55,549 nt of DNA from an uncultured Eubacteriales bacterium (GCA_902802805.1 CADCNE010000011.1:1-55549), one strand, 5' to 3'. Positions 29,878 through 49,469 are shown, counted from the first letter of the stretch. A program made the numbers and translations. Notes: generated by a model not told the origin, from the sequence alone.

Positions 29878-30546
29878 TTATCTGTCAGACGGCTGCGCTA
29901 TCCCGAATCCGGCGAGCTCGCTGACCGGCAACGAGAAGGCGATCGCGCCCGCTTTGGTGTCGGGGCCGGCCTGTTCGATGATGGCCTTCATGATGGCGGC
30001 CTTCTGGCTGGCGGCGGACACGATGAGGATGACCTCCTTCTCCGCGGCGATGGAGACCTTGTAGAACTTTTCCGCGTTCTTGCTCCCGGTGCCTAAGCCG
30101 TGGATCACCGTGCCGCCCCGGGCTCCGGCGGAGCGGGCCGCATCCATGACCTGGTCCGTGGCGCCCTGGTTGGCGATGATCATGATGAGCTCGTAATCAT
30201 AGTTGAGGGTGGGCAGGCCCTTTACGTTTTGCCCGTTGGATAAGAATGCCAATGTCTTGCTGCCTCCTACGCTCTTGATGGGGACTGAGACGGTGATGCC
30301 GTTGCCCGGCGCGTCGATGTAGAGCCGTTTTCGCTGTTCCTGGATGAGCTGCTTCGTCTGTTCGGGACTGGCCACGGTTATGAACAGCCGCCGGTCCTTG
30401 GATTCCATGCCCAACAGATCCAACATGCTCTTTGTGGCCGTGCCCCGGCAGGGAATGGAAAGGACGATGGGCAGGCCCATCTCCTCACAGAGCTTTTGCA
30501 TGATGTTGGCCCCCAGAGGGTGGACCACAGAGATCACATAGTTCAT
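29878..30546 (-). CDS. Tandem P-II-like regulator (DUF1538-associated)
   Basis: Two P-II-like halves; VMDAARSAGARGGT, EKEVILIV, GAIAFSLPV. Confidence 0.85.
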   Translation of the reverse strand: MNYVISVVHPLGANIMQKLCEEMGLPIVLSIPCRGTATKSMLDLLGMESKDRRLFITVASPEQTKQLIQEQRKRLYIDAPGNGITVSVPIKSVGGSKTLAFLSNGQNVKGLPTLNYDYELIMIIANQGATDQVMDAARSAGARGGTVIHGLGTGSKNAEKFYKVSIAAEKEVILIVSAASQKAAIMKAIIEQAGPDTKAGAIAFSLPVSELAGFGIAQPSDR

Positions 30547-31992
30547 GCAGCCACCTCCCAAAGCTCAATGATATCCGCTTCGCCGTAGATCTCCGCCCGA
30601 GCTGCACGCCGTCGTTCCTGAATGGCCGCCCGGACGCCCAGCAGCTGGATGGTGATGAGGGGCATCATGGCCACCATGGCTACGATCCCGAAGGCGTCGG
30701 AGAGAACGTTGCCCCCAAGGGCACTGCTGGCGCCGATCATGAACTGCAGCATGAAGGCGGCGGTCATGGGCCCCGAGGCCACGCCGCCGGAGTCAAAGGC
30801 GATGGCAGTGTAGATGTCCGGCACGAAAAAGGAGAGGGCCAGGGAGATGACGTATCCGGGGATCAGGAAGTAGAGCAAAGATAGCCCTGTCAACACCCGC
30901 AGCATGGACACGCCCATAGCGAGGGCGATGGCTACGGACAGGCCCAGCTGGATGGATCTGCCGGAGATAGCCCCGGAGCTCACCTGCTCGATCTGCTTTC
31001 GCAGCACCTGTACCGCCGGCTCCGCGGAGATGATGAACCACCCCAGCAGCATACTGAGCGGCACCATGAAATACCGCAGCGGGCCCTGGGTCAACGCCGT
31101 GCCAAGAACGCTGCCTAACGAGGCGAAGCCCACGTTCACCCCCGTCAAAAACAGCACCAGGCCCAGATACGTGAAACCGACGCCCATCAGGATCTTCCAA
31201 AAGCTCCGCCGATTCATGTGGAAACTGATGATTTGGAACACCAGGAAGATGATCAGGATGGGCAGCAGGGCTATTGCCGTTTCCTTTAGATATTCAGGCA
31301 GAGCAAACAGATACGAATACCCCAGCGCCGTGGTGGTCTCGTGGGCAGTGATAACGGAGGATACAGCGCCCTCTCCCTGGCCGTAAAAGAGGCTCAGCAC
31401 CAGCACCGAAAGGATGGGCCCTACGGAGCAGAGGGAGACCAGGCCGAAGCTGTCGGACTCCGCGTTGCTGTCGCTTCGGATGTGGCTGACGCCCACGCCC
31501 ATGGCCAGGATGGCGCAACACCAGTCCGTAGAGGCCCAGCAGCAGATACCGGAGCTTCACGCCGGTGAGGATGCGGAACATGGCCAGAGCCAAAAACAGC
31601 CCAACGCCTGCGCCTACCACGATGAGCAGCACTACGGTGTCGATGTGGGGCACGGAGTTTGCAAGGACCTGCAGATCCGGTTCGGAGACCGTCACCGCCA
31701 TGCCCAACACGAAACTGACGATCAGGATCAGCGGCAGCTTCCTGGATTTCGTCAGGGTGGAGCCGATCTTGCCGCCGATGGGGCTCATGGAGCTTTCCGC
31801 ACCCACGGTGAACAGGCCCATGCCCGCCACCACGAACAGCGACCCTACCAGGAAGGACAGCATGTGCCCCGTGGGCAGCGGCGTCACGAAAAGACACAGC
31901 AAACACACGATGACCAGGATGGGCAGCACCGAATTGATGCTCTCCTGCACCTTGTCCGCGATCATAGCCTTTTGTTTATTCAACTCGTTCAT
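30543..31992 (-). pseudogene. DUF1538 membrane transporter (two repeats) with internal deletion/frameshift near 31515
   Basis: SEPDLQVLA, DSFGLV, AEPAV, AFDSGGVASGPMT; first-repeat FDSGG segment absent and frame changes at the junction. Confidence 0.85.
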
Positions 31993-32052
31993 GTCAAACA
32001 AAGTATACTATAGCCGAAAGAAAAAGGAAAGATGAGAAAAGCAAGTTTTCTG

Positions 32053-32081
32053 TTGCGTCAAAATGGCCGGCTATGTATAAT
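32053..32081 (+). promoter_or_regulatory. Sigma-A-like promoter of queA
   Basis: TTGCGT-17 nt-TATAAT. Confidence 0.55.
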
Positions 32082-32109
32082 AGGGAGGAATCTGCTGCAG
32101 AGGTGTATT

Positions 32110-33135
32110 TTGAAGACAAGCGACTTTTACTATGACCTGCCCAGGGAGCTGATCGCTCAGACCCCCGCGCCTGTGCGCAGTGAGTCTAGGCTCCTCATAT
32201 ACAATAGAAAGGACAGCTCCATCACGGACGGCGTGTTCACCGACGTGCTGGACTATCTGTGCCCCGGGGACGTGCTGGTGCGCAACAACACCCGGGTCAT
32301 CCCCGCTCGGCTCATCGGCCATCGGCCCGAAACCGGCGGCACCATGGAGTTTTTGCTGCTGAGCCGGTTGGAGGGCGACGAGTGGGAATGTCTCTGCAAG
32401 CCCGCCAAGCGGGCCAAGGTGGGCACGGTCTACGAGGTCACGCCGGAGCTTTCCGTGAAGGTCCTGGGGGACGCCCCAATGGACGGCGGCAAGCGGGTGG
32501 AGCTTCTTTACGACGGCATCTTTGAGGAGGTACTGGACCGGGCGGGGCAGATGCCCCTGCCGCCCTATATCACGGAGCGCCTTGAAGACAAGGAGCGGTA
32601 TCAGACCGTCTACGCCGTGACCCGGGGCAGCGCCGCTGCCCCCACCGCGGGCCTTCACTTCACGAAGGAGCTGCTTGCCGCCATCGAGGCGAAGGGCGTA
32701 AAGATCGTGGACGTATTATTGCACGTGGGCCTTGGCACCTTCCGTCCGGTCAGCGAGGAGAACATCGAGGACCACAAGATGCATCAGGAGTTCTACCGGG
32801 TCACCGAGGCGGCCGCGAAGACCATCAACGACGCCCGGGCCGCCGGGGGCCGGATCGTCTGCGTGGGCACCACCTCTGTTCGTACGTTGGAGAGCGTCGC
32901 CACAGACGACGGCGTGATCCATCCGGGCAGCGGCTACACCGGCATCTACATCACCCCCGGCTATCGTTATAGGGCCGTGGACGCCCTGATCACCAACTTT
33001 CACCTGCCGGAGAGCACCCTCCTCATGCTGGTCTCCGCCTTCGCGGGCCGGGAGGAGGTCCTGCGGGTCTACGAACACGCGGTGAAGGAAAGATACCGGT
33101 TCTTCAGCTTTGGCGACGCGATGCTCATCTCATGA
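32110..33135 (+). CDS. queA: S-adenosylmethionine:tRNA ribosyltransferase-isomerase
   Basis: DFYYDLP..LIAQ, PLPPYI, AAPTAGLHFT, LHVGLGTF, YRFFSFGDAM. Confidence 0.97.
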   Translation: MKTSDFYYDLPRELIAQTPAPVRSESRLLIYNRKDSSITDGVFTDVLDYLCPGDVLVRNNTRVIPARLIGHRPETGGTMEFLLLSRLEGDEWECLCKPAKRAKVGTVYEVTPELSVKVLGDAPMDGGKRVELLYDGIFEEVLDRAGQMPLPPYITERLEDKERYQTVYAVTRGSAAAPTAGLHFTKELLAAIEAKGVKIVDVLLHVGLGTFRPVSEENIEDHKMHQEFYRVTEAAAKTINDARAAGGRIVCVGTTSVRTLESVATDDGVIHPGSGYTGIYITPGYRYRAVDALITNFHLPESTLLMLVSAFAGREEVLRVYEHAVKERYRFFSFGDAMLIS

Positions 33136-33141
33136 AGCCGG

Positions 33142-33894
33142 CTATTGTCGGTCCAGCCGCTGCTTTCCGTAACCCACCACGTCATGGAGCAGGATCTGTT
33201 CCCTGAATCCCTTGGGCGTGACCCACATGGCGCCTTCCTCGTTGACGTGTACGAGCTCGCCGGCTGCCTGCAGCAGTTCGGAGGTGGCAAGGATCTGTCC
33301 GCCCGCGGCGAAGCCCTGTACGCGGGAGGCGAGATTGACGTTGCGGCCGATCATATCATACTTCATCCGGGTCTGGGAGCCGATATTCCCAAGGATCGCC
33401 TCCCCGGTGTGCAGACCGATCCCCATCTCGATGTTCGGGTAATGATGCTCCCGGTTCCATGCGTTCACCGCCGGCATGCGCCTCTGCATGGCGACAGCGC
33501 ATGCCACGGCGTCGCGGGCGGAGAGCTCATTGGGATGCGGCGCGCCGAAGACCGCCACGATCGCGTCGCCGGCAAATTCCAGGATGTTGCCCTGCCAGGC
33601 GTTGATGATCTCGATCATCTCTTCAAAAAAATGATTGAGCATGTTCAGAAAGGATACGGGGTCCATCTCTTCGGAAAGCTGGGTGGAACAGCGCAGATCC
33701 GTGAACATCATGCTCACGATCCTGCGTTCCCCGCCGATCTTCAGGCCGTCTTCGCCGGACATGATTTCTTCAAGCACTTCGTCGGTCAGATAGCGGCCGA
33801 AGGTGTTGCGAATAAAAGCATCTCTGGCAAAGAGAGCCTCTTTCAAATGCACGTTTTCCCTCTGGAGCACTGTGATATCCGAATGATCCATCAT
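33142..33894 (-). CDS. Class III nucleotidyl cyclase (adenylate/guanylate cyclase family), no sensor domain
   Basis: FGRYL, MFTDLRCST, ILEFAGDAIVAVFGAP, GIGLHTG..GNIGS, YDMIGRNVNLASR. Confidence 0.93.
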   Translation of the reverse strand: MMDHSDITVLQRENVHLKEALFARDAFIRNTFGRYLTDEVLEEIMSGEDGLKIGGERRIVSMMFTDLRCSTQLSEEMDPVSFLNMLNHFFEEMIEIINAWQGNILEFAGDAIVAVFGAPHPNELSARDAVACAVAMQRRMPAVNAWNREHHYPNIEMGIGLHTGEAILGNIGSQTRMKYDMIGRNVNLASRVQGFAAGGQILATSELLQAAGELVHVNEEGAMWVTPKGFREQILLHDVVGYGKQRLDRQ

Positions 33895-34688
33895 ATTTCG
33901 ATCTCCTCTCCTTCACGGGCATAGCGGATGCGCTCGCTGTTGAACCGACGTTCCCTGCGCAGAAGCTCCTCGTCGGATGCCTGCGGATCGTGGTGGATCA
34001 GAAGAAGCCGCTTCGCGCCGCAGCGCTCCATGAGCTCAACTCCCTTCTCCGCCGTGGAGTGGCCGAAGCCCTTTTTGGTGATGGAGTCTTTCTCGGTGAA
34101 CTGTCCGTCATAGAGCAGTAGGTCAGCCCCGTCGCAAAACGAGATCAGTTTTGAAAAGAACGGGTCATCCGGTTCACAATCGGTGGCATAGACGAGGCGT
34201 TTGTCCCCATATTTCAGACGAAAGACCAGGCAGCCTCCCGGATGACGGCCTTCGATGCTCTCAACGGTCACATCCCCGATCCGCAGGGTCGGCTTGAGCG
34301 GCTCGAGAAGCAATGTCCCCTTGTACTCTGTGAGAGGGATCGGCCAGAAGGGAGGAGAGAACAGCTGTTGAAGCAGGGCTCGCATCTCATCTTCCGTATC
34401 CGCCCTGAACAGCAACCGGGTGATCGTCCCGTCCTGAGAGAGCCGTGGATACATGCCGAGCCCGATCACGTGATCGAGATGCAGATGGCTGAGCAAAATG
34501 ACCGGCGTTTTTTCAAACCGCGCAGGGGCCGAAACGAGGCCGGTGCCTCCGTCCAGAAAGATGGTCTCCGAGCCTGCCTGCACCATGTAGCACGAGGTGG
34601 CGCCGCCGAACCGGGACCGTTTTGTGTCGCTGACCGGCAGGGAGCCGCGTGCGCCTAAAACGGTCAGGCACATGTTGTGTTCCTTCAT
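33891..34688 (-). CDS. MBL-fold metallohydrolase, putative cyclic nucleotide phosphodiesterase
   Basis: LGARGS..FGGATSC, LDGGTG, SHLHLDH, HPGG, YATDCE, GHST, HHDP; RBS aaggagga; 4-nt overlap with cyclase. Confidence 0.9.
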   Translation of the reverse strand: MKEHNMCLTVLGARGSLPVSDTKRSRFGGATSCYMVQAGSETIFLDGGTGLVSAPARFEKTPVILLSHLHLDHVIGLGMYPRLSQDGTITRLLFRADTEDEMRALLQQLFSPPFWPIPLTEYKGTLLLEPLKPTLRIGDVTVESIEGRHPGGCLVFRLKYGDKRLVYATDCEPDDPFFSKLISFCDGADLLLYDGQFTEKDSITKKGFGHSTAEKGVELMERCGAKRLLLIHHDPQASDEELLRRERRFNSERIRYAREGEEIEI

Positions 34689-34784
34689 CTGCGTCCTCCT
34701 TGCGGTTTACTACTATATTTATACTACCACAGAGGCCGCCGTTTCAACTTTTTTTGTCGCTGTGAAAATCTTTTTCGACGTTTC

Positions 34785-34846
34785 TTGAATAATCCGATCC
34801 TATATGATATTCTATCCATGAACATATATGCACATCGCTGTGTGCA
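34785..34846 (+). promoter_or_regulatory. Promoter and palindrome upstream of cNMP-binding genes
   Basis: TTGAAT-17 nt-TATTCT (34785-34813) then TGCACA-N6-TGTGCA (34829-34846). Confidence 0.5.
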
Positions 34847-34866
34847 GTGGAAATGGAGGATACTAT

Positions 34867-35346
34867 ATGAGCGACACGAAGATCTACCGCCGCAATACCG
34901 TCGTTTTCCGTGAAGGGGATCCGGGCGATTGCATGTATCAGATCGAGACCGGCATGGTGGGGATATATCACGATTACGGCGGCAAGAACGAAACACAGAT
35001 CGCCACTCTCGACAGCGGCAAGGTGTTTGGAGAGATGGGGCTTCTGGATCATGCGCCCCGGTCTGCCACCGTGGTCGTGCTGGAAAAGGACACGATGCTG
35101 ACAAAGATCTCCGAGGAAAGCTTTCTGGCGTTCTTTGAAGAGAATCCTTATGTGATTCTCGACGTCATGCAGCAGATGTGCAATCGACTGCGCATGACGA
35201 CCAAGGCGTATACGGAGGCTTGCCATACGGTGTACGATGCGGTCGAGGCGGAGAAGAGCGGGCAGAAAAAGAGCCCTTCCCTGAAAGAACGCATCCAGGA
35301 GCTTTGCCGAGCCTATCGTGATTTTCGTTTTGATCTATTCTATTAA
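34867..35346 (+). CDS. Stand-alone cyclic nucleotide-binding domain protein 1
   Basis: VFREGDPGDCMYQIETG and phosphate-binding cassette FGEMGLLDHAPRSATV; RBS ggagg; no evident HTH. Confidence 0.92.
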   Translation: MSDTKIYRRNTVVFREGDPGDCMYQIETGMVGIYHDYGGKNETQIATLDSGKVFGEMGLLDHAPRSATVVVLEKDTMLTKISEESFLAFFEENPYVILDVMQQMCNRLRMTTKAYTEACHTVYDAVEAEKSGQKKSPSLKERIQELCRAYRDFRFDLFY

Positions 35347-35363
35347 GTGGGGAGAGCGATACC

Positions 35364-35825
35364 ATGAATACATTGACACTTCATTCCGGTGAGATCATTT
35401 TCCGGCAGAAAGACTTTGCCGAAAGCATGTTCGATATCGTCAGCGGCAAAGTCGGTATCTTCAGCAACTACGGGACCGATACGGAGACTAAGATCACGGA
35501 GCTTGGAGAGGGCCAGACCTTCGGCGAGATGGGCATGATCGAATACTTTCCGAGGTCGGCGACGGCCGTTGCCCTGGAGGAGACCGTTCTGACAGAGATC
35601 AAAGAGGAAGAACTGAAAACGTACTTCCGGGACAAGCCGGAAAAGCTGCTGCGGATCATGAAGCTGCTGAGTCAGCGCATACGCGAAACGAACGAAAAAT
35701 ACATCGCAGTTTGCCGGTCCGTCAGCGAGCATGAGTCGCTGGATACCATGGATCCGGATGCGATGGACGTTGCCTGGATCGAGATGGAACGGTACGCCAT
35801 GGACTATTGGCTCCACTGGCACTGA
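35364..35825 (+). CDS. Stand-alone cyclic nucleotide-binding domain protein 2
   Basis: GEIIFRQKD..MFDIVSGKV and FGEMGMIEYFPRSATA; no evident HTH. Confidence 0.92.
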   Translation: MNTLTLHSGEIIFRQKDFAESMFDIVSGKVGIFSNYGTDTETKITELGEGQTFGEMGMIEYFPRSATAVALEETVLTEIKEEELKTYFRDKPEKLLRIMKLLSQRIRETNEKYIAVCRSVSEHESLDTMDPDAMDVAWIEMERYAMDYWLHWH

Positions 35826-35898
35826 GCTTTTTGAGACCCGGAGGTGGTCGCCGCTCGTTTCGGGGAACGGGCGCTGACCGCGGCTGACGCAAACAAGG

Positions 35899-36002
35899 TT
35901 GCAATTTGATGGTCCCGGCCGTATAATACGGAATAGGCCAGATGGAAACGAAGAACAGGGATCGTGACGGCATGGCTTTCGCATGTGGGCCATGCCGTTT
36001 TT
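35899..36002 (+). promoter_or_regulatory. Promoter followed by terminator-like hairpin in the tgt leader
   Basis: TTGCAA-17 nt-TATAAT (35899-35927); acggcatggc/gccatgccgt stem plus T tract (35967-36002). Confidence 0.55.
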
Positions 36003-36091
36003 GATTGGAAGAAGGGCAAGCGTCCGCCGACAGGGATCGGCGTTTGCCGAGGAACAGGCAGTTGCGTGTCTGTTTGATTGAGAGATCGGAC

Positions 36092-37207
36092 ATGAACGAG
36101 AATTTCAAGTTTGAAGTGCTGCACGTGGACAAGCAGACCGGGGCGCGTCTCGGTCGCCTCCACACCCCCCATGGGGACATCGACACCCCCGTATACATGC
36201 CTGTGGGCACCCAGGCCACGGTGAAGGCCATGACGCCCCGGGACGTGGAGGAGACGGGGGCGTCCATCCTCCTGTCCAACACCTACCACCTGTACCTCAG
36301 GCCCGGCCATCGGCTGGTGGAGCAGGCTGGCGGTTTACACAAGTTTATGCACTGGGACAGGCCCATCCTGACGGACAGCGGCGGCTTCCAGGTCTTCTCC
36401 CTGGCCAAGAAGGGGGATATCCACGAGGACGGCGTGCTGTTTCGCTCCCATATCGACGGCAGCAAGCACCTGTTCACCCCGGAGAGCGTCATGGCTGTGG
36501 AGCAGGCTCTTGGCGCGGACATCGCCATGTGCTTCGACGAGTGCGCCCCCGGCACGGCGGACTATCGCTACGCCGTGAAGGCCATGGATCGGACCCATCG
36601 CTGGGCGGAGCGTTGCCGGGAGGTCCACACCCGCCCCGATCAGGCTCTCTTCGGCATCGTTCAGGGCTGCGTCTACGAGGACCTCAGGATCGAAAGCGCA
36701 AAGACCCTGGCGTCCATGGACTTCCCCGGCTACGGCATCGGGGGCCTCTCCGTGGGCGAGCCCAAGGAAAAGATGTACGAGATGCTGGACGCCATCCGGC
36801 CCTACATGCCCGAGAACAAGCCCCGGTACCTTATGGGCGTGGGCAGCCCCGATTGCCTCATCGAGGGGGTCCTGCGGGGCGTCGATATGTTCGACTGCGT
36901 GCTTCAGACCCGGGCGGCCAGGAACGGCCTGGCCCTCACCCGCAAGGGGCGGATCATGCTCCGCAACCAGACCTACGCCGAGGACTTCTCGCCCATCGAG
37001 GAGGGCTGCGACTGCTACGCCTGCCGCAACTTCTCCCGGGCCTACATCCGCCACCTCATCAAGGCGGAGGAGATCCTCTCCGGCACCCTCATCACCATGC
37101 ACAACATCCGCTTCTCCGTACGGCTCATGGCGGACATCCGCCGGGCCATCGCGGAGGATCGGTTCGGCGACTTTGCCAAAGAGCTGTTGGAGGTCAAGCT
37201 GTTCTGA
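36092..37207 (+). CDS. tgt: tRNA-guanine transglycosylase (preQ1-type)
   Basis: [35 protein letters not shown], zinc CDCYAC. Confidence 0.97.
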
Positions 37208-39943: not shown

Positions 39944-40010
39944 TTTTTTGCCGCTCCGCCTGCGTGAGATGCCCTGCCGACGGGTCTGAAAAATATTTTT
40001 CGACGACCCA

Positions 40011-40038
40011 TTGACAACCGGCAGATTTTTGTTATAAT
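40011..40038 (+). promoter_or_regulatory. Promoter of tRNA operon 2
   Basis: TTGACA-16 nt-TATAAT with TG extension. Confidence 0.75.
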
Positions 40039-40051
40039 AACCCATGCGCGT

Positions 40052-40127
40052 GCGGGAATAGCTCATTTGGTAGAGCGCAGCCTTGCCAAGGCTGAGGTGG
40101 CGGGTTCGAGCCCCGTTTCCCGCTCCA
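40052..40127 (+). tRNA. tRNA-Gly(GCC)
   Basis: CAGCC-TTGCCAA-GGCTG; CCA. Confidence 0.95.
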
Positions 40128-40131
40128 GTAT

Positions 40132-40208
40132 GCCTCCTTAGCTCAGTTGGCTAGAGCACCTGACTCTTAATCAGGGTGTCCAGGGTTCGAGTCCCTGAGG
40201 GGGTACCA
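40132..40208 (+). tRNA. tRNA-Lys(CTT), island integration site
   Basis: CCTGA-CTCTTAA-TCAGG; CCA; 3' part duplicated at 50017-50056. Confidence 0.94.
40164..40203 (+). repeat. att core, left copy (inside tRNA-Lys)
   Basis: ctcttaatcagggtgtccagggttcgagtccctgaggggg. Confidence 0.93.
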
Positions 40209-40236
40209 AAAAACCACCCAAAATGGGTGGTTTTTT
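40208..40236 (+). terminator. Intrinsic terminator after tRNA-Lys
   Basis: aaaaaaccaccc-aaaat-gggtggtttttt. Confidence 0.8.
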
Positions 40237-40684
40237 CTATTCTCAAGAGATTTTTCAGCGAAAAATCGTCTTTTGGGAATAGATTTACCCCTCTGGGAAG
40301 GCCAAAAACGGTAGCAAAATGGGTAAAAATCCACTTACAGCCTCTTTTTTGGATCTGTCAAAAGAACAACGCGCACGTCTTTTTTCAGTCAAAAAATGAC
40401 GTTTTTCACCTCAAATGAGTGAAAAAAAGCATCTCTCAACGACAGTTCACAAATATTTCACATTTCAGATCCTAAAAGACAAGCGGTTTTCCCATTTAGA
40501 GCTTAGTTAGGTTGGCGCTAAAATAATATATTTTCTCGAACCATAGATGCCTCGTTTAAGAGTTACCTGAGGATCCGATCTGAGTTGTCTGTTTTCAATT
40601 GTCCAAGCTGTCGATAGATAGAAGGAACATGCGGAGAGCAGTAAAGAAAAGATGAATCAAAAAGTGCTCTAAGGAGGAAACAAA

Positions 40685-41893
40685 ATGGAAACAAAAACTA
40701 AACTGGGCGTCCCCTACAAACGCGGGACAGGATATGTGTACTATCTCGGTATCCGTGATGACTCCGGAAGGAAGAAGACTTGGTTTTCTCGAGTCTTCAA
40801 AACGTATGAGGAGGCTCTGGCCGATTCTACCGAGCGGCAGAAATATCTGAAGCAAATACAAGCCCAGACTTCTCCAAATGAAAAACTGAAAAACTATCTG
40901 GATCGATGGTTGCGGGGGAAATACTATTTCACCGTTTCTGTGTCTACGTGGCGTTGTGCGGAATCTCATATCCGTCTTTATATCAATCCTACGATAGGCC
41001 AAACAAAGATGTGCATGCTTACAGACGCGGATGTTGAGAAGGTTATGAAAAAGTGCCAACGTAGCGGGTTATCGGCGTCCAGCACGCGATTTGTTTTTTC
41101 AACGCTCAGAAGTGCGTTGAAACAGGCTGTAAAGGAAAAGATCATCAAATCGAATCCTTGCTCGCTTGTATCTCCGCCGTCCGTGAAACGGGTTCGTCGC
41201 CAACTGATCCCACCGGAAAAGACAGCAGAGTTTCTTGAATTGGCAAAGAAACATGGTATCTATCTGGAGGTGCTGTTCGGAATCAACTTCGGATTGAGGA
41301 GGGGAGAGGTTCTTGGACTTCAGTTCAGGGATTTCGATCTTCAACAGAATCTCCTGACGCCGAAGAGACAAATTGGGTACACGCTGAAGACGAATCAATT
41401 GGACAAGGGGGTTCCTCGCACAGACTGGGGTGTCGTCGACAATCTGAAGACGGATGAAAGCTATGGGCGTGAGCTGGTTATCTCTCCAAAGATAAAGGAG
41501 CTCATCCTGTATCTTAAAGATAAATACGTGGAAGAGGGCGTATGCGAAAAGAAGAACATTGAGAAATGCTTCGTATGCTGCCGGGCTGACGGGACTTTCA
41601 AAAGCCCCAATGTCCTTCGAAAGAGGTTTATGGCTGTTCGTGAGGAAGCTGGGATGCTGAAGCTTCGCTTTCACGATCTCAGGCATACGTTCGCTTCCTA
41701 CATGATCGAGGATGGAATCCCGGTTGCCGTTGTCAGCGCAGCCTTGGGCCACACCTCTATCACGACTACGCTAAACTCTTACTATGACGTGATCAATGGC
41801 GGAAAACAGATCGCTGATCACATGAGCGACAAGCTCTGCGACACGCTTGTCCCAACAGAAGCTGAACTCAAAGCTTCTATTCGAAACAAATAG
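40685..41893 (+). CDS. Tyrosine recombinase / phage-type integrase
   Basis: GLRRGEVLGL, FHDLRHTFAS, LGHTSITTTLNSY (R-H-R-H-Y); RBS aaggagg. Confidence 0.95.
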   Translation: METKTKLGVPYKRGTGYVYYLGIRDDSGRKKTWFSRVFKTYEEALADSTERQKYLKQIQAQTSPNEKLKNYLDRWLRGKYYFTVSVSTWRCAESHIRLYINPTIGQTKMCMLTDADVEKVMKKCQRSGLSASSTRFVFSTLRSALKQAVKEKIIKSNPCSLVSPPSVKRVRRQLIPPEKTAEFLELAKKHGIYLEVLFGINFGLRRGEVLGLQFRDFDLQQNLLTPKRQIGYTLKTNQLDKGVPRTDWGVVDNLKTDESYGRELVISPKIKELILYLKDKYVEEGVCEKKNIEKCFVCCRADGTFKSPNVLRKRFMAVREEAGMLKLRFHDLRHTFASYMIEDGIPVAVVSAALGHTSITTTLNSYYDVINGGKQIADHMSDKLCDTLVPTEAELKASIRNK

Positions 41894-41912
41894 AATCCTC
41901 CATAAACATATC

Positions 41913-41942
41913 AAAGAAGCCTTGGAGACAGGGCTTCTTTTT
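41913..41942 (+). terminator. Intrinsic terminator after integrase
   Basis: aaagaagcct..gggcttcttttt hairpin. Confidence 0.7.
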
Positions 41943-42066
41943 GTAAGGCAAAACATAATGAACGGTCAAAATAAGATGGCATCGCATTTTGGCCGGAATG
42001 GATGGTGAGAATAAACAGAAAAAGAAGCCTGTACGAATAGGCTTCTGTTCAAACGTAGTGATCCGA

Positions 42067-42393
42067 TTAAACTGCCGCAGTATTATACGGACGGATGAGA
42101 GCAATTTCCTTCCAGGAGGATTCCTTCAAGCTCCGAATGTCGATATCATTCTGCAGGTTCAGAAAATAACGATCGGAGACACCGAAGAACTTCGCTAACC
42201 GCAGAGAAGTATCCGCCGTGATCTTCCGCCTATTATGAAGCATATCCTGTATCCTGGACGTGGGCACATGGATCTCCTGCGCAAGCTTATACGCAGAAAG
42301 ATTAAACGGCTCCATGAATTCTTCCCAAAGGATCTCGCCGATCGTTGGGGTACAAACTATTTCTGTTTTGTTATCAGTAAGACTATTGATCAT
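42067..42393 (-). CDS. HigA-family antitoxin/HTH regulator with no adjacent toxin
   Basis: GEILWEEFMEP, SAYKLA, RKITADTSLRLAKFFG, FLNLQ. Confidence 0.88.
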   Translation of the reverse strand: MINSLTDNKTEIVCTPTIGEILWEEFMEPFNLSAYKLAQEIHVPTSRIQDMLHNRRKITADTSLRLAKFFGVSDRYFLNLQNDIDIRSLKESSWKEIALIRPYNTAAV

Positions 42394-42399
42394 GTCCAG

Positions 42400-42433
42400 A
42401 TTATACACAGGGCGGATGTATATGTAAATACAT
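42400..42433 (-). promoter_or_regulatory. Promoter and palindromic operator of the higA-like gene
   Basis: Minus-strand TTTACA-17 nt-TATAAT ending 6 nt before ATG; ATGTAT-N6-ATACAT (42416-42433) overlaps the -35. Confidence 0.55.
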
Positions 42434-42770
42434 TCTCAGAAACGCACATGTGAGTTCTTTTATTGTCCCTTAATCCGTCTCGTTTTTACAAAGCGTTTCT
42501 TGTCTCGCCTTTCCGCATCGATTACACTATAACCGTCGAGAATTATGTTTAACAAGATTTCGCCAATTCTTCGCATTCTGCAGTTCATCCTGCAAATGAG
42601 ATTTGGCGGCAAAAAGTTTGTTAAACACAAAAACCAAGTCAGGTGATCTCGCCCAGGGTTTCATTTTTCTTTCATACTATTATTGCAGATGCGGATTTCC
42701 GTGGCTTGCGAATAAGTGAGAAAGAAGATATAATAAAATGACTTTTTGTATAGGGAAGGGCGGAGAAATA

Positions 42771-44336
42771 GTGGATACGAAGAAAGAGCAAGAGCGCGAA
42801 GAACTGCACCGTGCTATTTGGGCGATCGCGGATGAACTCAGGGGCTCTGTGGACGGCTGGGACTTCAAGAACTATGTTCTCGGCACCATGTTCTACCGCT
42901 ATATCTCCGAGAACCTGGCCAACTATATCAACGAGGGAGAGCAGGCTGCCGGCAATACCGATTTTGATTATGCCAAGATGTCCGACGCCGAAGCGGAGGA
43001 GGCCAGGGAAGGGCTGATTCAGGAGAAGGGCTTCTTCATCCTCCCGTCCGAACTGTTCTGCAATGTCCGTGCCCGCGCGCCCCGCGATGAGAACCTCAAT
43101 GAGACGCTTGAGCGCGTGTTCAACAACATCGAGGATTCCGCCAAGGGCAGCGATTCCGAAAACAGCTTTGCCGGCCTCTTCGACGATTTCGACGTCAACA
43201 GCAACAAGCTCGGGCCCACGGTTGCCAAGCGCAACGAGCGTCTGACGAAGCTCCTTGACGGTATCGCCAACATGAATCTTGGCGACGTCAAAACCCATGA
43301 CATAGACGCCTTCGGTGACGCCTACGAATATCTGATGACGATGTACGCCTCCAACGCGGGCAAGTCCGGCGGCGAGTTCTTTACCCCTGCGGATATCTCC
43401 GAACTGCTGACGCGCATCGGCACTGTCGGCAAGACGGAAGTCAACAAGGTGTACGATCCCGCCTGCGGTTCCGGTTCGCTGCTGCTGAAAGCCGAGAAGA
43501 TCCTCGGGCGCGACGGCGTGCGCGTGGGCTTCTTCGGGCAGGAGATCAACATCACCACCTACAACCTCTGCCGCATCAACATGTTTCTCCACGATATCGG
43601 CTTCGACAAGTTCGATATCGCCTGTGATGATACGCTGACAACGCCCGCACATTGGGATGATGAGCCCTTTGAGCTGATCGTTTCCAATCCCCCGTACTCG
43701 ATCAAATGGGCGGGCGACACCAATCCGCTGCTGATCAATGATCCGCGCTTTGCCCCGGCCGGCGTTCTGGCGCCCAAGGGCAACGCCGACTTCGCTTTTA
43801 TCATGCATTCCCTTTCCTGGCTCGCGCCCAACGGCACGGCTGCCATCGTCTGCTTCCCGGGCATCATGTATCGGGGCGGGGCGGAACAGAAGATCCGCAA
43901 GTATCTGATCGACAACAACTTCATCGACTGTGTGATCCAGCTTCCCAGCAACCTGTTCTTCGGTACGTCCATCGCCACCTGCATCATGGTGCTGAAGCGC
44001 GGCAAGGCGGACGGCAAGGTGCTGTTCATCGACGCCACAAAGGAGTGCATCAAAGTCGTCAAGAACAACAAGCTGACGCAGGCGAACATGGATCGCATCG
44101 TGGACACCTTCACCAAGCGGGAGGAGATCCAGCATTTTGCGCACCTCGCTGATCTGAATGAGATCACGGAAAACGATTACAACCTTTCTGTATCCACTTA
44201 TGTGGAGGCGGAGGACACCCGGGAGAAGGTGGATATCCAGAAGCTCAACGCCGAGATCCGGGAGATCGTGGCGAGGGAAGCGGTTCTCCGCGCGGAGATC
44301 GACAAGATCATTGCAGAGATCGAGGGGGTGCAATAA
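42771..44336 (+). CDS. hsdM: Type I RM methyltransferase subunit
   Basis: GDAYEYL, GEFFTP, YDPACGSGSLL, NPPY (m6A); GTG start inferred. Confidence 0.96.
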   Translation: MDTKKEQEREELHRAIWAIADELRGSVDGWDFKNYVLGTMFYRYISENLANYINEGEQAAGNTDFDYAKMSDAEAEEAREGLIQEKGFFILPSELFCNVRARAPRDENLNETLERVFNNIEDSAKGSDSENSFAGLFDDFDVNSNKLGPTVAKRNERLTKLLDGIANMNLGDVKTHDIDAFGDAYEYLMTMYASNAGKSGGEFFTPADISELLTRIGTVGKTEVNKVYDPACGSGSLLLKAEKILGRDGVRVGFFGQEINITTYNLCRINMFLHDIGFDKFDIACDDTLTTPAHWDDEPFELIVSNPPYSIKWAGDTNPLLINDPRFAPAGVLAPKGNADFAFIMHSLSWLAPNGTAAIVCFPGIMYRGGAEQKIRKYLIDNNFIDCVIQLPSNLFFGTSIATCIMVLKRGKADGKVLFIDATKECIKVVKNNKLTQANMDRIVDTFTKREEIQHFAHLADLNEITENDYNLSVSTYVEAEDTREKVDIQKLNAEIREIVAREAVLRAEIDKIIAEIEGVQ

Positions 44337-44554
44337 TGAATAAAAACAGCCTTCACATTCCATTTTCTGCGCCGTTGAATGCTGCAGATACTGAGAGCCA
44401 GACGTATGGGTGTAGGCAGAACAACCCAGACATCTGTTCCAACAATAGCTTGCCAGGCGTTTGCGCCTTTACAAGTGCAGATTGCATCTGCAAGAAACCC
44501 TCCAGAGCTTGGAAAAAACGGTACAATGAGCTTCGGGAGGAATCACATGAGTAA
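44336..44554 (+). CDS. Small Cys-rich hypothetical protein (72 aa)
   Basis: TAATG coupling to hsdM, RBS gaggggg, overlaps hsdS start; five Cys. Confidence 0.7.
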   Translation: MNKNSLHIPFSAPLNAADTESQTYGCRQNNPDICSNNSLPGVCAFTSADCICKKPSRAWKKRYNELREESHE

Positions 44555-45683
44555 ACTCGAAGAACTGCTTTTACAATACTGCCCGGATGGGGTTGAGTTT
44601 CGGAAAATCAAGGATGTCTATCAACGTTTGAGGGGGACTCCCATAACCGCGGGCAAGATGAAGGAAATTGAGAATCCGGACGGCGACATCCGTGTGTTTG
44701 CCGGAGGTAAAACCGTTATCAATGCGTTTGAAAAAGATATTCCGAATGCAAACATTACGAGAGTGCCCGCTGTTCTCGTCCAGTCAAGAGGCGTAATCGA
44801 TGCGGTATACTACGATAAGCCGTTTACATTCAAAAACGAAATGTGGGCATACACAGCCGAGGAGCAAGTTTCAGTCAAGTATCTGTTTTATGTGCTCAAG
44901 AACAATGTTGAATACTTCCGGACAGCGGCTTCCGGGATGGGATCACTTCCGCAGATATCACTCCCGGTTACGGAAGAGTTCAGCATTCCCGTACCTCCCA
45001 TAGAGGTACAGCGTGAAATTGTCCGCATATTGGACAATTTCACGGAGCTTACAGCGGAGCTTACAGCGGAGCTTACAGCGAGAAAGAAGCAGTATGAGTA
45101 TTACAGAGATTGGATGCTATCGTTTGATTCCTCGGTTCAGTATAAAAGAATACAGGACATTTGTACGATTTCTCGCGGTAAAGTCATTTCAAAGGATGAT
45201 TTACGTATCAATGCAGGAGACTATCCTGTGTATTCTTCTCAAACTGAAAACAATGGAGAGTTTGGCCGAATAAACTCTTTCATGTATGATGGCGAATATC
45301 TAACATGGACAACGGATGGAGCAAATGCTGGTTCGGTTTTTTATCGTAATGGAAAGTTTAGCATTACAAATGTTTGCGGGCTATTGAAAGTCGATCCATC
45401 AATAGCAGATATTAAATATTTGTTCCATGCTCTAAAAGTAGAGGCGCCAAAGTATGTTAATAGTGGCATGGGAAACCCAAAACTGATGAGCAATGTTATG
45501 GGGGGCATTAAGATTGCTCTTCCTTCAATGGAACGTCAGAAGAGAATAGCAATAATTCTTGACAACTTCGAATTGATTTGCTCTGATTTGCGCATCGGCC
45601 TGCCGGCGGAGATCGAAGCACGGAGACAGCAATACGAACACTACAGGGACAAACTCTTGACTTTTAAGGAGAAGGAAGCATGA
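44547..45683 (+). CDS. hsdS: Type IC RM specificity subunit
   Basis: CPDGVEF start, IPVPPIEVQREIV, TAEL repeats, GLPAEIEARRQQYEHYRDKLLTF; RBS ggagg. Confidence 0.95.
   Translation: MSKLEELLLQYCPDGVEFRKIKDVYQRLRGTPITAGKMKEIENPDGDIRVFAGGKTVINAFEKDIPNANITRVPAVLVQSRGVIDAVYYDKPFTFKNEMWAYTAEEQVSVKYLFYVLKNNVEYFRTAASGMGSLPQISLPVTEEFSIPVPPIEVQREIVRILDNFTELTAELTAELTARKKQYEYYRDWMLSFDSSVQYKRIQDICTISRGKVISKDDLRINAGDYPVYSSQTENNGEFGRINSFMYDGEYLTWTTDGANAGSVFYRNGKFSITNVCGLLKVDPSIADIKYLFHALKVEAPKYVNSGMGNPKLMSNVMGGIKIALPSMERQKRIAIILDNFELICSDLRIGLPAEIEARRQQYEHYRDKLLTFKEKEA
45045..45080 (+). repeat. 12-bp tandem repeat (gagcttacagcg)x3 encoding the TAEL spacer
   Basis: Three exact copies read directly. Confidence 0.92.
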
Positions 45684-46336
45684 AAAAGGGCGTTATCTAC
45701 ATCCTCACCAATCCGTCTTTTCCGGATTACATCAAAATAGGGTACGCGCACAATCTGGAGAAAAGGCTGAAACAGCTTAACCGGAGCGAAACGATCCCGT
45801 TCGCATTTCGTGCCTATGCGGTGTATGAAGTAGATAGCGAGCTTACTGATAAAGAGCTTCACAAGCTTATCGATGCTCTTAACCCGGATCTGCGTACCAT
45901 TGAAACTTTTGATGGCAAAGAACGGGTAAAGGAGTTTTATGCCATGTCGGCTGAGGAAGCATATGCTCTTCTTGAATGTATCGCCAAAATCAGCGGCACA
46001 ACCGGAAGCCTGAAGCGGATGAAGCCAGAGGGCCATGAGGTTCTGGATGAACAGATCGCCCAGGAAGTAAGAGAGAGTGCTCGCAAAGGCCCGTTCAGGT
46101 TTTCAGAGTGCGGAATACCTGTTGGATCTGAAATCGTTTTTATCGAAGATGCTTCAATCAAGGCAACGGTTATTGATGATCGAAAGATCGAATATAACGG
46201 TGAAACGACATCGGTATCCGCATTGGCGCAGAAAATCAAGGGATTTGATCATCCTGTCCAGGGAACGCTCTGGTTCACATATAACGGGAAACGCTTAACT
46301 GAAATCAGAGATGAGCTGGATAATAGACAGAAATAA
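45680..46336 (+). CDS. GIY-YIG (T5orf172-like) nuclease-family protein with RAMA-like C-terminal domain
   Basis: GVIYILTNPSF..IKIG..RLKQL..KEFY; C-terminal IEYNGETTSVSALA..QGTLWFTYNGKRL. Confidence 0.78.
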   Translation: MKKGVIYILTNPSFPDYIKIGYAHNLEKRLKQLNRSETIPFAFRAYAVYEVDSELTDKELHKLIDALNPDLRTIETFDGKERVKEFYAMSAEEAYALLECIAKISGTTGSLKRMKPEGHEVLDEQIAQEVRESARKGPFRFSECGIPVGSEIVFIEDASIKATVIDDRKIEYNGETTSVSALAQKIKGFDHPVQGTLWFTYNGKRLTEIRDELDNRQK

Positions 46337-46354
46337 ACTATAGGTGGTGTCATT

Positions 46355-49300
46355 ATGACATTTTTCAATATTGTCGCTCAAACAAGTGACAATACCGTTG
46401 TAACAGAATATGAACCCGTCAAAGCTCGCTCAGACAGCTACCAGAGCGAGGCGGATCTGGAGAAAGAATTCGTTCGCATGCTCACCGAACAGGGGTATGC
46501 GTACTTGCCGATCCATTCCGAGGCAGAGCTCGTCTCCAATTTAAGAGTGCAGTTGGAAAAGCTGAACGGCTATACCTTCTCCGACTCCGAGTGGGATCGT
46601 TTCTTCAAAAACAACGTTGCCAATCCCAATGAGCATATCGCGGAGAAGACGCAGAAGATCCAGGAGGATTATGTTCAGGTTCTCAAGCGGGACGACGGCA
46701 CTACGAAGAATATAACGCTGATCGACAAGAAGAACGTCCACAACAATTTCCTTCAAGTTATCAATCAGTATGAAGTGAGCCAGGCAGAAGGCGCCAATCA
46801 CGACAACCGGTACGACGTCACGATCCTGGTAAACGGCCTGCCGCTCATCCATGTGGAGCTGAAGAGAAGGGGCGTGCCCATCCGCGAAGCGTTCAACCAG
46901 ATCAACCGATATCAGCGGGATTCCTTCTGGGCTGGCTGCGGTTTGTTTGAGTATGTCCAGATCTTCGTGATCAGCAACGGCACCAATACCAAGTATTACA
47001 GCAACAGCACCCGCTGGAACGCCATCAAGGATGCCAAAGCACCCAAGACGAATAAACAGAAAACGTCTAACAGCTTTGAGTTCACGTCCTTCTGGGCTGA
47101 TTCCAATAACCGCGTGATTCCGGATCTGATCGACTTCACCCGAACCTTCTTCGCCAGGCACACGATCCTGAATATCCTGACGAAGTATTGTATCTTCACT
47201 TCGGAGAAGATGCTGCTTGTCATGCGTCCGTATCAGATCACGGCAACGGAGCGTATCCTGAACCGGATCGACATCGCCACCAACTACAAGAAGTACGGCA
47301 CCATTGCCGGCGGCGGATACATTTGGCATACAACCGGTTCCGGTAAAACGCTGACATCGTTCAAGACGGCTCGGCTTGCTTCCCGCCTGCCGTATATCGA
47401 CAAGGTTCTCTTCGTCGTCGATCGCAAGGATCTGGACTACCAGACGATGAAGGAGTACGATCGCTTCGAGAAGGGCGCTGCCAACAGCAATACTTCCACG
47501 AAGATACTGAAGAAGCAGCTTGAGGATCCGGAGTGCAAGATCATCATCACCACGGCGCAAAAGCTGTCGATCTTCATCGATAAAAATCCCGGGCATCCGG
47601 TGTATCAGAAACATATCGTCATCATCTTCGACGAATGTCATCGCGGACAATTCGGCGACATGCACGCCGCTGTCGTCAAGAATTTCAAGAAGTACCATAT
47701 CTTCGGGTTCACCGGTACGCCCATCTTCGCCGCCAATGCCGTGAGAGGTGCTGGCTCTCAGCTCATGACGACGACGCAGGTGTTTGGCGATCAGTTGCAC
47801 ACTTACACCATCGTCGATGCTATCAACGATAAGAACGTGCTGCCGTTCCGCGTGGATTATATCAAGACGATGGATTCCGATGACAGCATTGAAGACGAGC
47901 AGGTTTGGGACATCGATCGCGAAAAGGCGTTCATGGCACCTCAAAGGATCTCGCTCGTCACCCAGTACATCCTGGATCATTTTACGCAGAAAACATATCG
48001 CGGCAGCCGCTCCTATGATTTCAATGCGCTCACCAACATTGCGGATGTAGCGTCAGCGGATAGGGGAGTGGTAGAGGAGATCAAACAAAAGCAGCGGCTC
48101 AGCGGCTTCAACGCCATATTCTGCGTGGCCTCTGTGCCCATGGCGAAACTGTATTATGAAGAGTTCAAGAAGCAGATGGCAGTCGATCCCACCAAGAAGC
48201 TGCGTGTTGCTACGATCTTCAGCTATGCTGCGAACGAGGCTGAATCAGACGGCATCCTGGGAGAGGAAAACTCCGAGGACACTTCCGCTTTGGACAAGCC
48301 CTCCAGGGACTTCCTCGATGCGGCGATCAAAGATTATAACGACATGTTCCATACGAACTATTCGACGGACGGCGACAAGTTCCAGAATTACTACAAAGAC
48401 GTGTCCCTCCGCATGAAGAATAAGGAGCTGGATCTGCTCATCGTTGTAAATATGTTTCTGACTGGTTTCGACGCCACAACCCTCAATACGCTGTGGGTGG
48501 ATAAGAACCTGCGAATGCACGGGCTGATTCAGGCGTTCAGCCGCACGAATCGTATTCTGAACAGCATCAAAACGTTCGGCAACATCGTTTGCTTCCGCAA
48601 CCTTCAAAAGAAGGTGGATGAAGCCATAGCTCTGTTCGGTGACAAGGACGCGGGCGGCATTGTATTGCTGAAACGCTTTGACGATTATTATTACGGATAC
48701 GAAGATGCAGATGGAAAGAAGCATCCCGGCTATGTCAGCATGATTGAGGATCTTCAGACGAAGTTCCCACTGTCGGAGCCCCAGATAATAGGGGAGAAGG
48801 CCCAGAAGGAGTTTTTGAAGCTCTTTGGTGCCATCCTTCGTATGAGAAACCTGTTGTCTTCCTTCGACGAATTTGAGGGCAGAGGGATTCTTTCAGAACG
48901 TGATCTGCAAGACTATCTCAGCCGGTATCAGGATATGTGGCCTTTGCCAGTTCATACTGGAGACAAGGAAGATGTTTCGGATGACATCGTGTATGAGATC
49001 GAGCTCATCCGGCAGATCGATATCAACATCGATTATATCCTGCTGCTCGTCAAGAAGTACCATGACAGTCACTGCGACGATAAAGAGATTCTTATCACGA
49101 TCCAGAAGGCGGTGGATGCATCGCCCGAGCTGCGCAGCAAGAAGGAACTGATCGATACGTTCATCGCCGGCATCAACGACGTGGATGATGTGCTCACCGA
49201 ATGGAGAAGTTTCATAGCGGAGGAGAAGGAACGCCAGCTTACCCAGATCATTCAAGAAGAGAAACTAAATGAAGAAGCCACGCGGAAGTTCATAGCCGAT

Positions 49301-49456
49301 TCTCTGCGAAACGGTGAAGTGAAAACAACCGGCACGGACATCGACAAGCTCATGCCCCCGACGTCCCGTTTCGGCGGCGGCAACCGTGCAGCCAAGAAGC
49401 AGACGATCATCGAGAAGCTGAAAGCCTTCTTCGAACGGTTCTTCGGGATAGGATAA
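46355..49456 (+). CDS. hsdR: Type I RM restriction subunit
   Basis: RYDV..VELK..QINRY nuclease; HTTGSGKT, DECHR, FTGTP, MFLTGFDA, QAFSRTNR. Confidence 0.97.
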   Translation: MTFFNIVAQTSDNTVVTEYEPVKARSDSYQSEADLEKEFVRMLTEQGYAYLPIHSEAELVSNLRVQLEKLNGYTFSDSEWDRFFKNNVANPNEHIAEKTQKIQEDYVQVLKRDDGTTKNITLIDKKNVHNNFLQVINQYEVSQAEGANHDNRYDVTILVNGLPLIHVELKRRGVPIREAFNQINRYQRDSFWAGCGLFEYVQIFVISNGTNTKYYSNSTRWNAIKDAKAPKTNKQKTSNSFEFTSFWADSNNRVIPDLIDFTRTFFARHTILNILTKYCIFTSEKMLLVMRPYQITATERILNRIDIATNYKKYGTIAGGGYIWHTTGSGKTLTSFKTARLASRLPYIDKVLFVVDRKDLDYQTMKEYDRFEKGAANSNTSTKILKKQLEDPECKIIITTAQKLSIFIDKNPGHPVYQKHIVIIFDECHRGQFGDMHAAVVKNFKKYHIFGFTGTPIFAANAVRGAGSQLMTTTQVFGDQLHTYTIVDAINDKNVLPFRVDYIKTMDSDDSIEDEQVWDIDREKAFMAPQRISLVTQYILDHFTQKTYRGSRSYDFNALTNIADVASADRGVVEEIKQKQRLSGFNAIFCVASVPMAKLYYEEFKKQMAVDPTKKLRVATIFSYAANEAESDGILGEENSEDTSALDKPSRDFLDAAIKDYNDMFHTNYSTDGDKFQNYYKDVSLRMKNKELDLLIVVNMFLTGFDATTLNTLWVDKNLRMHGLIQAFSRTNRILNSIKTFGNIVCFRNLQKKVDEAIALFGDKDAGGIVLLKRFDDYYYGYEDADGKKHPGYVSMIEDLQTKFPLSEPQIIGEKAQKEFLKLFGAILRMRNLLSSFDEFEGRGILSERDLQDYLSRYQDMWPLPVHTGDKEDVSDDIVYEIELIRQIDINIDYILLLVKKYHDSHCDDKEILITIQKAVDASPELRSKKELIDTFIAGINDVDDVLTEWRSFIAEEKERQLTQIIQEEKLNEEATRKFIADSLRNGEVKTTGTDIDKLMPPTSRFGGGNRAAKKQTIIEKLKAFFERFFGIG

Positions 49457-49469
49457 ACAATGGAAACTT

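Follow-up and report, generated by a model that had tools for sequence, protein, structure and literature searches.

The open reading frame (ORF) at 33142–33894, on the minus strand of a 55,549-nucleotide stretch from an uncultured Eubacteriales bacterium (GCA_902802805.1 CADCNE010000011.1:1-55549; the whole stretch is called the window below), encodes an intact class III nucleotidyl cyclase. Our overall reading, to which we assign a probability of about 0.6, is that this protein is an active, sensor-less relative of Synechocystis Cya2 and the synthase of a horizontally transferred cyclic nucleoside monophosphate (cNMP) cassette, with cyclic AMP (cAMP) as the most likely product. The cassette also encodes a metallo-β-lactamase (MBL)-fold hydrolase and two stand-alone cyclic-nucleotide-binding (CNB) proteins. 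A preliminary description of the window had drawn attention to the cyclase's unusual Glu/Asp pair at the base-selecting sites; the pattern across its clade, together with the MBL–cyclase–CNB cassette, proved more interesting than the residue pair alone.

Catalytic residues, fold and clade of the cyclase

To place the ORF, we combined profile, codon and structural comparisons. A Pfam profile search matched its residues 60–229 to PF00211 (E 6.6e-26, 91.5 bits, cut-off 21.9), and a codon check located both metal Asp residues, D66 (FTDL) and D110 (AGD), as well as N187 and R191 (VNLASR), R68 and K228. D66, D110, N187 and R191 each occur in 121 of 121 sequences when the cyclase is aligned with its 120 best orthologs, and the phosphate-binding R68 and K228 are invariant in the ortholog alignment, which bears out the earlier statement that the metal-binding Asp and transition-state Asn/Arg residues are intact. 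The codon check likewise confirmed the two base-selecting residues as first described, a Glu four residues before the second metal Asp (E106, ILEFAGD) and an Asp in KYDMIG (D180).

Among solved structures, the top phmmer match was a bacteriophytochrome–Cya2 chimera (6FHT, E 3.8e-52), along with Synechocystis Cya2 itself (2W01, E 1.7e-43, 152 bits, 40–42% identity); the next relatives were the adenylyl cyclases CyaB (3R5G, 1.3e-28) and CyaC (1WC1, 9.1e-19). The alignment with Cya2 is free of gaps near the motifs and places E106 on Glu488 of 'tidEfmGD' and D180 on Gly562 of 'KYGvvG', so that the Glu falls exactly where the preliminary description had put it. The E106 position is Lys in the E488K version of the chimera, and D180 is aligned with the Thr at the specificity site in both CyaB and CyaC. 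An AlphaFold2 (AF2) model of the cyclase, with a predicted local distance difference test score (pLDDT) of 85.6, superposes on 2W01 with a template modeling (TM) score of 0.92–0.94 and a root-mean-square deviation of 1.5 Å; its fold also matches 3R5G and 1WC1. In the model a long helix (residues 4–32) is followed by a short helix (38–46) that carries FGRY, the motif of the cyclase-transducer element in the available text of PMC5995499, and then by the catalytic core. This N-terminal region aligns with the linker of 6FHT, and no sensor domain precedes it, in agreement with the short coiled coil noted at the outset.

The catalytic residues of the cyclase are all shared with Cya2, as are the first-position Glu, the transducer element with FGRY and an arm of the class IIIb type; it differs in having Asp rather than Gly at the second position, in lacking CHASE2 or any membrane sensor, and in belonging to a clade of 250-amino-acid proteins in which the Glu is not conserved. 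CyaB and CyaC have Lys in place of Glu106 and Thr in place of Asp180, although the 'GRNVNLASR' stretch of CyaB is almost identical. Of the two residues that define each class, the window cyclase lacks the second for Cya2-type guanylyl cyclases and the first for canonical adenylyl cyclases, and the suspicion that this is not a standard adenylyl cyclase agrees with the absence of a Lys/Asp or Lys/Thr pair and with Cya2 as the nearest characterized relative. The Glu/Asp (E/D) pair is not a one-off error, since it also occurs in two 96%-identical copies (L017 and L033).

To see how widely this pair is distributed, we compared it across the family. A HMMER scan covering 1.84 billion representative proteins returned 1,986 representatives at E ≤ 1e-30. 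In the best 150 of these the residue pairs were E/G in 100, E/A in 13, E/D in 8, E/N in 8, E/S in 7 and E/T in 3, with 11 other singletons; because most begin with Glu, the cyclase falls within a large lineage of Cya2-like proteins with Glu at the first position. A word-indexed search returned 628 proteins at E ≤ 1e-10, of which the best 120 are 65–92% identical to the cyclase and, except for two (312 and 328 residues), 246–288 residues long. In a 184-row FastTree phylogeny with SH-like supports and the trait columns kept in, the 250-amino-acid cyclases are monophyletic (40 rows, support 100) and nested in a 45-row clade with Asp at the second position (support 94). The other five rows of this Asp clade are PAS-cyclases of 370–460 amino acids, and its sister group carries E/N. 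We left out as non-orthologs 35 metagenome loci at 35–42% identity (L077 and L079–L112 except L097), in which the pair is K/T in 33, N/S in one and K/A in one, as well as L075 (E/D, 47%). One 1071-amino-acid protein (P0271) joins an AddB N-terminal domain to a 68%-identical cyclase domain; because it is the only sequence in its cluster, the join probably arose as a chimera during assembly or gene calling.

Across the 121 sequences, Asp180 is present in 120, while position 106 is E in 63, D in 48, G in 5, A in 2, S in 2 and K in 1, making it acidic in 111 and G, A, S or K in the remaining 10. On a 126-row tree this position requires a minimum of 17 state changes, and no fewer than three between acidic and non-acidic residues. 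Outside the Asp clade, 132 of 138 Cya2-like representatives without a second-position Asp retain the Glu. From this difference, the first position appears to have become free to vary exactly where Asp180 was fixed. The description of E106 as a guanylyl-type Glu thus holds for its alignment with Cya2 Glu488, but the weight placed on it does not, given how much less conserved it is than the Asp. When we examined 52 ortholog loci as an independent set, position 106 was E in 18, D in 17, S in 9 and G in 6, with two unreadable; the Asp found in 51 of 51 metagenome loci is partly circular, as one of the two search patterns included KYD, and we prefer the figure of 120 of 121.

Further differences separate the 250-amino-acid clade from its E/G relatives: position 105 is L in 113 of 120 versus D in 78 of 100, position 175 is T in 118 of 120 versus K or R in 78 of 100, positions 181–182 are MI versus VV, and position 70 is S versus the F of 'GFT'. 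The pocket was thus remodeled where the clade arose, with G replaced by D at 180, K/R by T at 175, D by L at 105 and VV by MI at 181–182. We propose that Asp180 is the main base selector in this clade and that position 106 is evolutionarily free.

Likely product of the cyclase

In adenylyl cyclases, an Asp at the second position acts as the acceptor for adenine N6. The available portion of PMC4215837 describes a Lys plus Asp pair for adenylyl cyclases and lists C, S, T, H, A and G, with no Asp, as the second-site partners of Glu in known guanylyl cyclases; Cya2, with a Glu-Gly pair, prefers GTP according to the accessible text of PMC6005667. Literature searches for a natural 'Glu-Asp' cyclase pair and for the residues of Rv1900c found nothing relevant. 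The only measured enzyme with this pair that we found is the K101E mutant of Mycobacterium avium Ma1120, which uses both ATP and GTP: its Vmax is 9.4 nmol cAMP versus 7.4 nmol cyclic GMP (cGMP) per min per mg, and its kcat/Km is 0.82 × 10^6 for ATP versus 0.05 × 10^6 for GTP (PMC4215837, values from the part available). Ma1120 K101E is, however, an engineered single-residue variant of an adenylyl cyclase with Lys/Asp, built on a distant scaffold and of low activity, and it represents no natural family.

Against this background, we favor cAMP, or a mixture of cAMP and cGMP, over dedicated cGMP synthesis. An invariant Asp180 beside a drifting position 106 fits a clade whose members share ATP as substrate, and in the variants with G, A, S or K at position 106 a canonical Glu-dependent read-out of guanine would be impossible. 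In addition, the same CNB pair is found beside E/D, D/D, S/D and G/D cyclases, which suggests one ligand whatever residue 106 is. The single likeliest outcome is an enzyme that makes mainly cAMP, at somewhat below even odds; production of both purine cNMPs is a possible but clearly weaker candidate, mainly cGMP is slightly less probable again, and some other product is improbable. The possibility of cGMP raised in the preliminary description can be kept for a Glu-bearing copy such as this one, where cGMP is most likely at most a side or dual product; as the leading candidate it gives way to the missing precedent for Asp in guanylyl cyclases and to the dual specificity of the engineered E/D enzyme.

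Several observations weigh against this reading. The nearest characterized enzyme is the guanylyl cyclase Cya2, and the window copy retains Glu106; in Cya2 itself, E488K alone yields an adenylyl cyclase, such that the first position sets specificity there (PMC5995499, in the text available), and in Ma1120 at pH 7.5, K101E lowers adenylyl cyclase activity by 92% and raises guanylyl cyclase activity 4.6-fold (PMC4215837, likewise). Since 111 of 121 orthologs are acidic at position 106, Asp may replace Glu for guanine binding in the remodeled pocket, and the G, A, S and K lineages may merely have switched product. The 'TT' in the C-helix of the CNB proteins resembles the motif that Clr uses for cAMP and cGMP alike, so that the receptors do not tell the two apart in silico; the product is a prediction. 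The cassette itself is also not universal: among the 43 ortholog loci whose upstream sequence spans 300 nucleotides or more, 5 have no upstream MBL gene (L034, L057, L059, L068 and L069), and 5 of 17 loci with ample flanks have no CNB pair.

The strongest form of this objection is a dedicated guanylyl cyclase, in which Glu106 would read guanine N1/N2 as in Cya2, Asp180 would be tolerated or contact guanine via water, and the cassette would be a cGMP circuit. The close sequence and structural match to Cya2, the placement of Glu106 on Glu488, the retained R68 and K228, the mostly acidic position 106 and the effects of the Cya2 and Ma1120 substitutions all speak for it, as does the documented use of cGMP in bacterial signaling, for example in Pucsar (from the available part of a preprint). 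Nevertheless, we consider it unlikely. Glu is not kept in nearly half of the orthologs, and S or G takes its place in 15 of 50 loci; the Asp found here is unlisted for any known guanylyl cyclase in the available text of PMC4215837, and its negative charge would face guanine O6. Position 175 is also Thr rather than the Lys or Arg common in the E/G clade. Tyr572, which reportedly raises the guanylyl cyclase activity of Cya2, is Ser190 here, an argument that we dropped as weak because only 2 of 100 E/G relatives have the Tyr. A true dual-specificity purine cyclase, whose Glu/Asp pocket takes ATP and GTP and whose Clr-like CNB proteins answer both cAMP and cGMP, is less probable still. It is consistent with the near-equal Vmax values of engineered Ma1120, with the use of the TT motif for both nucleotides in Clr (PMC10127613, in the portion available) and with RLRMTT at what an inferred alignment offset makes the matching C-helix place of CNB1. 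However, the precedent is a single engineered enzyme on another scaffold with low activity, orthologs without Glu would lack the property, and the proposal is a conjecture. We therefore retain cAMP, alone or mixed with cGMP, as the favored product.

MBL-fold and CNB partners

The preliminary description did not mention the MBL and CNB partners, which are more informative on function than the residue pair. Table 1 collects the coordinates of the cassette and its borders.

Table 1. Features of the cyclase cassette and its flanks, in window coordinates
Feature	Position	Strand	Basis
Class III (Cya2-like, IIIb-type) nucleotidyl cyclase, 250 amino acids, without sensor domain	33142..33894	-	PF00211, 2W01, AF2
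N-terminal coiled coil (residues 4-32) and cyclase-transducer element (residues 33-46), FGRY motif	33757..33885	-	AF2 secondary structure
Metal Asp66 (FTDL)	33697..33699	-	Codon check
Glu106, codon GAA, first base-selecting position (ILEFAGD), 4 residues before D110	33577..33579	-	Codon check and alignments
Metal Asp110	33565..33567	-	Codon check
Asp180, codon GAT, second base-selecting position (KYDMIG)	33355..33357	-	Codon check and alignments
MBL-fold hydrolase, 265 amino acids, putative cNMP phosphodiesterase	33891..34688	-	PF12706, 1e-18
Divergent intergenic region between MBL-cyclase and CNB pairs, probable promoters	34689..34866	.	Gene layout
CNB1, stand-alone cyclic-nucleotide-binding protein, 159 amino acids, likely start Met14	34867..35346	+	PF00027, 1.7e-21
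CNB2, paralogous stand-alone cyclic-nucleotide-binding protein, 153 amino acids	35364..35825	+	PF00027, 5.5e-19
Sigma-70-like promoter match TTGCAA-17-TATAAT, upstream of tgt	35899..35927	+	Sequence match
Terminator-like hairpin, 13-bp stem, after CNB pair, inside inserted segment	35966..35999	+	Pattern match only
queA, left flank of insertion	32032..33135	+	PF02547, 6.6e-137
Remnant of the original queA 3' end, right border of insertion	36064..36081	+	Same-genus queA-tgt junction comparison

The stop codon of the MBL gene overlaps the start codon of the cyclase gene (ATGA), and the MBL gene lies directly upstream of the cyclase in the other 38 of the 43 loci considered above. Its best solved sequence relative is Bacillus subtilis YhfI (6KNS, E 2.7e-13), which is also the best fold match of its AF2 model (pLDDT 90.9, TM 0.80); Apyc1 (7U2S) and yeast PDE1 follow at ranks 18 and 43. 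The protein carries an HxHxDH motif, and the metal-ligand positions H68, H70, D72, H73, H149, D170, H210, H232 and H233 are invariant in 22 MBL sequences. With YhfI and phage Apyc1, which are class II cNMP phosphodiesterases, it thus shares the fold, the motif and the other metal ligands, but it is only ∼22–24% identical to them and is coupled or fused to a cyclase here; the curated family of cNMP-degrading phosphodiesterases NF041851 scores it at 54.6 bits against a cut-off of 400. YhfI prefers cAMP and cGMP to cyclic CMP and cyclic UMP in the available text of PMC9117128. Natural MBL–cyclase fusions form four clusters at 90% identity (17 member sequences, 504–566 amino acids) with the same order as the genes, and all four retain nine of nine MBL ligands and the DEDDNR residues of the cyclase. 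In these fusions the MBL domain is N-terminal to the coiled coil and transducer, where the sister clade has PAS. A literature search for an operon of MBL, cyclase and CNB genes found nothing relevant, and we did not find cyclase–MBL coupling or fusion described.

Of the 17 loci in which the sequence extends 2 kb or more upstream and 0.7 kb or more downstream of the cyclase, 12 contain the CNB pair, always as two paralogs. CNB1, CNB2 and their orthologs have an intact phosphate-binding cassette (FGEMG...PRSAT) and a CRP-like C-helix. The listed CNB1 ORF begins at 34828, but its orthologs and a GGAGGA 7 nucleotides before the ATG favor the start given in Table 1; residues 15–129 of CNB1 weakly match CRP. 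Both proteins share with CRP/CAP and Clr the CNB fold, the phosphate-binding cassette and RLRxTT/TN in the C-helix at the place of CAP T127/S128. In contrast to CRP/CAP, they have no helix-turn-helix domain (no such family matched in Pfam or NCBIfam) and instead end ∼45 residues past the C-helix in a conserved soluble helical tail, 'EACRTVYE.VEAEK'. We considered the C-helix TT as a marker for cAMP and rejected it, as Clr uses TT for cAMP and cGMP alike.

The window genome (2.12 Mb, 93.5% complete) contains a single PF00211 domain, that of the cassette cyclase, and three PF00027 domains, two of which are CNB1 and CNB2. The third belongs to an Fnr-like frame on another contig (C74; L004 1393–1845) that runs off the contig end, and SKSPV replaces the phosphate-binding RSA, leaving the Arg absent; it is probably a regulator that does not bind cNMP. 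No class III cyclase was found in this genome outside the cassette, nor was any other CNB domain that appears competent.

Other partners recur in related loci. Three of the five loci without a CNB pair (L039, L040 and L042), together with L048, instead carry a membrane sensor PP2C-HATPase_c_2 gene and a STAS gene directly upstream of the MBL gene, while L018 and L044 have both the CNB pair and PP2C/SpoIIE-HATPase_c_2 plus STAS genes. In all six, the sensor protein consists of two hydrophobic segments, an outside domain of ∼190 amino acids, PP2C/SpoIIE and HATPase_c_2. The position of these genes directly upstream of the MBL–cyclase pair suggests a link to a partner-switching module, in the form of control of, or by, the cyclase. 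A GAF-ABC ATPase gene directly follows the cyclase in L040, L045, L059 and L061, followed in turn by an FtsX-type permease in L040, the only downstream region examined. The GAF domain did not match a regular expression for the NKFDE-type cNMP-binding signature, which is uninformative. The flanks differ across loci, with housekeeping genes (folate C1 metabolism, ABC transporters or queA/tgt) in six of them.

Insertion, distribution and meaning of the cassette

In the window the cassette is inserted between queA and tgt, where ∼2.9 kb with its four genes occupy 33136–36091. Cassette sequence has taken the place of the final queA codons, so that the protein ends in ..GDAMLIS where relatives have ..GDACLFE, and the remnant of the original 3′ end stands immediately before the ATG of tgt, at 36092. 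The same ∼2.9-kb arrangement occurs in the 96%-identical L017, a record titled as a Christensenellales rumen metagenome-assembled genome. The cassette is absent from this junction in nine of nine same-genus loci compared; tgt lies within ∼90 nucleotides of queA in eight of them, and because the ninth (L025) has a GNAT-like ORF between the two genes, insertions seem to recur at this junction. No Rfam family matched in 32900–36200.

Two observations from elsewhere in the window may be recorded here. On the far side of queA, two DUF1538 ORFs (30543–31502 and 31294–32001) overlap by 209 nucleotides in different frames and adjoin a P-II-domain protein (29878–30561); the corresponding region of L017 is a single frame of 529 amino acids, and the overlap may be a frameshift or real. 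The G+C content of 40001–50000 is 0.46–0.51 compared with ∼0.60–0.65 elsewhere, and this segment may be foreign.

The short-form cyclase occurs in 2 of 151 sampled genomes of the family, the window genome (G000) and one that carries it at another site (G029), and, at E ≤ 1e-70, in no further genome among the 400 scored for the class (one additional genome was unscored). The same cassette is found in records titled Clostridia and Coriobacteriales/Coriobacteriaceae. Few species genomes carry the cassette, and its patchy distribution points to horizontal transfer among anaerobes of the rumen and gut.

A mobile, patchily distributed cassette with a sensor-less class III-type cyclase beside CNB proteins is reminiscent of Pycsar and Pucsar, and it could be imagined as such an anti-phage or conflict system, triggered by infection, possibly using a pyrimidine cNMP, with the CNB proteins and/or a nuclease-like MBL protein as effectors. 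The patchy distribution across Christensenellales, Clostridia and Coriobacteriales records, the insertion into queA–tgt, PADLOC PycC models that match the cyclase and PycTIR models whose CNB part matches CNB1 and CNB2 are all compatible with defense. Nonetheless, we regard this as very improbable. The preliminary description had proposed a comparison with PycC clades; the best PycC model scores 68.7 bits, far under the 152 bits for Cya2. The CNB proteins consist only of PF00027 and ∼45 soluble helical residues, with no TIR or transmembrane effector domain, and reading their tails gave no hydrophobic segment, though no hydropathy scan was run. The cassette differs further in its dedicated MBL hydrolase, in the housekeeping flanks and in recurrent partners that are regulatory (SpoIIE-HATPase_c_2 plus STAS, and GAF-ABC). 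Relatives of the cyclase were found in 0 of 96 candidate stretches from viral contigs, and PHROGs matches were to generic cyclase and hydrolase families only. By effector content and context, the cassette is not Pycsar or Pucsar.

In our reading as a cNMP signaling cassette, the cyclase would act as a homodimer, head-to-tail as in its family, and make a purine 3′,5′-cNMP. The translationally coupled MBL enzyme would hydrolyze this cNMP in the manner of YhfI and class II-type phosphodiesterases, providing turnover or feedback, and because the MBL domain of the fusions occupies the PAS position of the sister clade, it may also gate the cyclase there. The messenger would be received by the two CNB proteins, which probably form a dimer like that of CRP and would work via protein–protein contact; in some relatives their target may be the partner-switching module. 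A more far-reaching picture, which we regard as possible but doubtful, is that of a previously undescribed synthase–hydrolase unit analogous to GGDEF-EAL, in which the phosphodiesterase takes the usual place of a sensor domain and gates the sensor-less cyclase, and which, together with two CRP-like receptors devoid of DNA-binding domains, forms a portable circuit that is spreading through gut and rumen anaerobes of two phyla with a messenger non-standard for these bacteria. If this were true, the messenger would be cGMP, both purine cNMPs or another cNMP, made by an acidic/Asp pocket unseen in characterized cyclases.

In the 250-amino-acid clade, nature itself contradicts the two-residue rule by which cyclases are annotated as adenylyl or guanylyl: the adenylyl-type Asp is frozen, and free drift affects the very position considered dominant in the parental scaffold of Cya2. 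Little has been mapped of cyclic-mononucleotide signaling in the strict anaerobes among Clostridia and Coriobacteriia, and the four-gene cassette offers a small, closed and experimentally tractable circuit there, in which the recurrent coupling and fusion of MBL and cyclase suggest built-in turnover or feedback.

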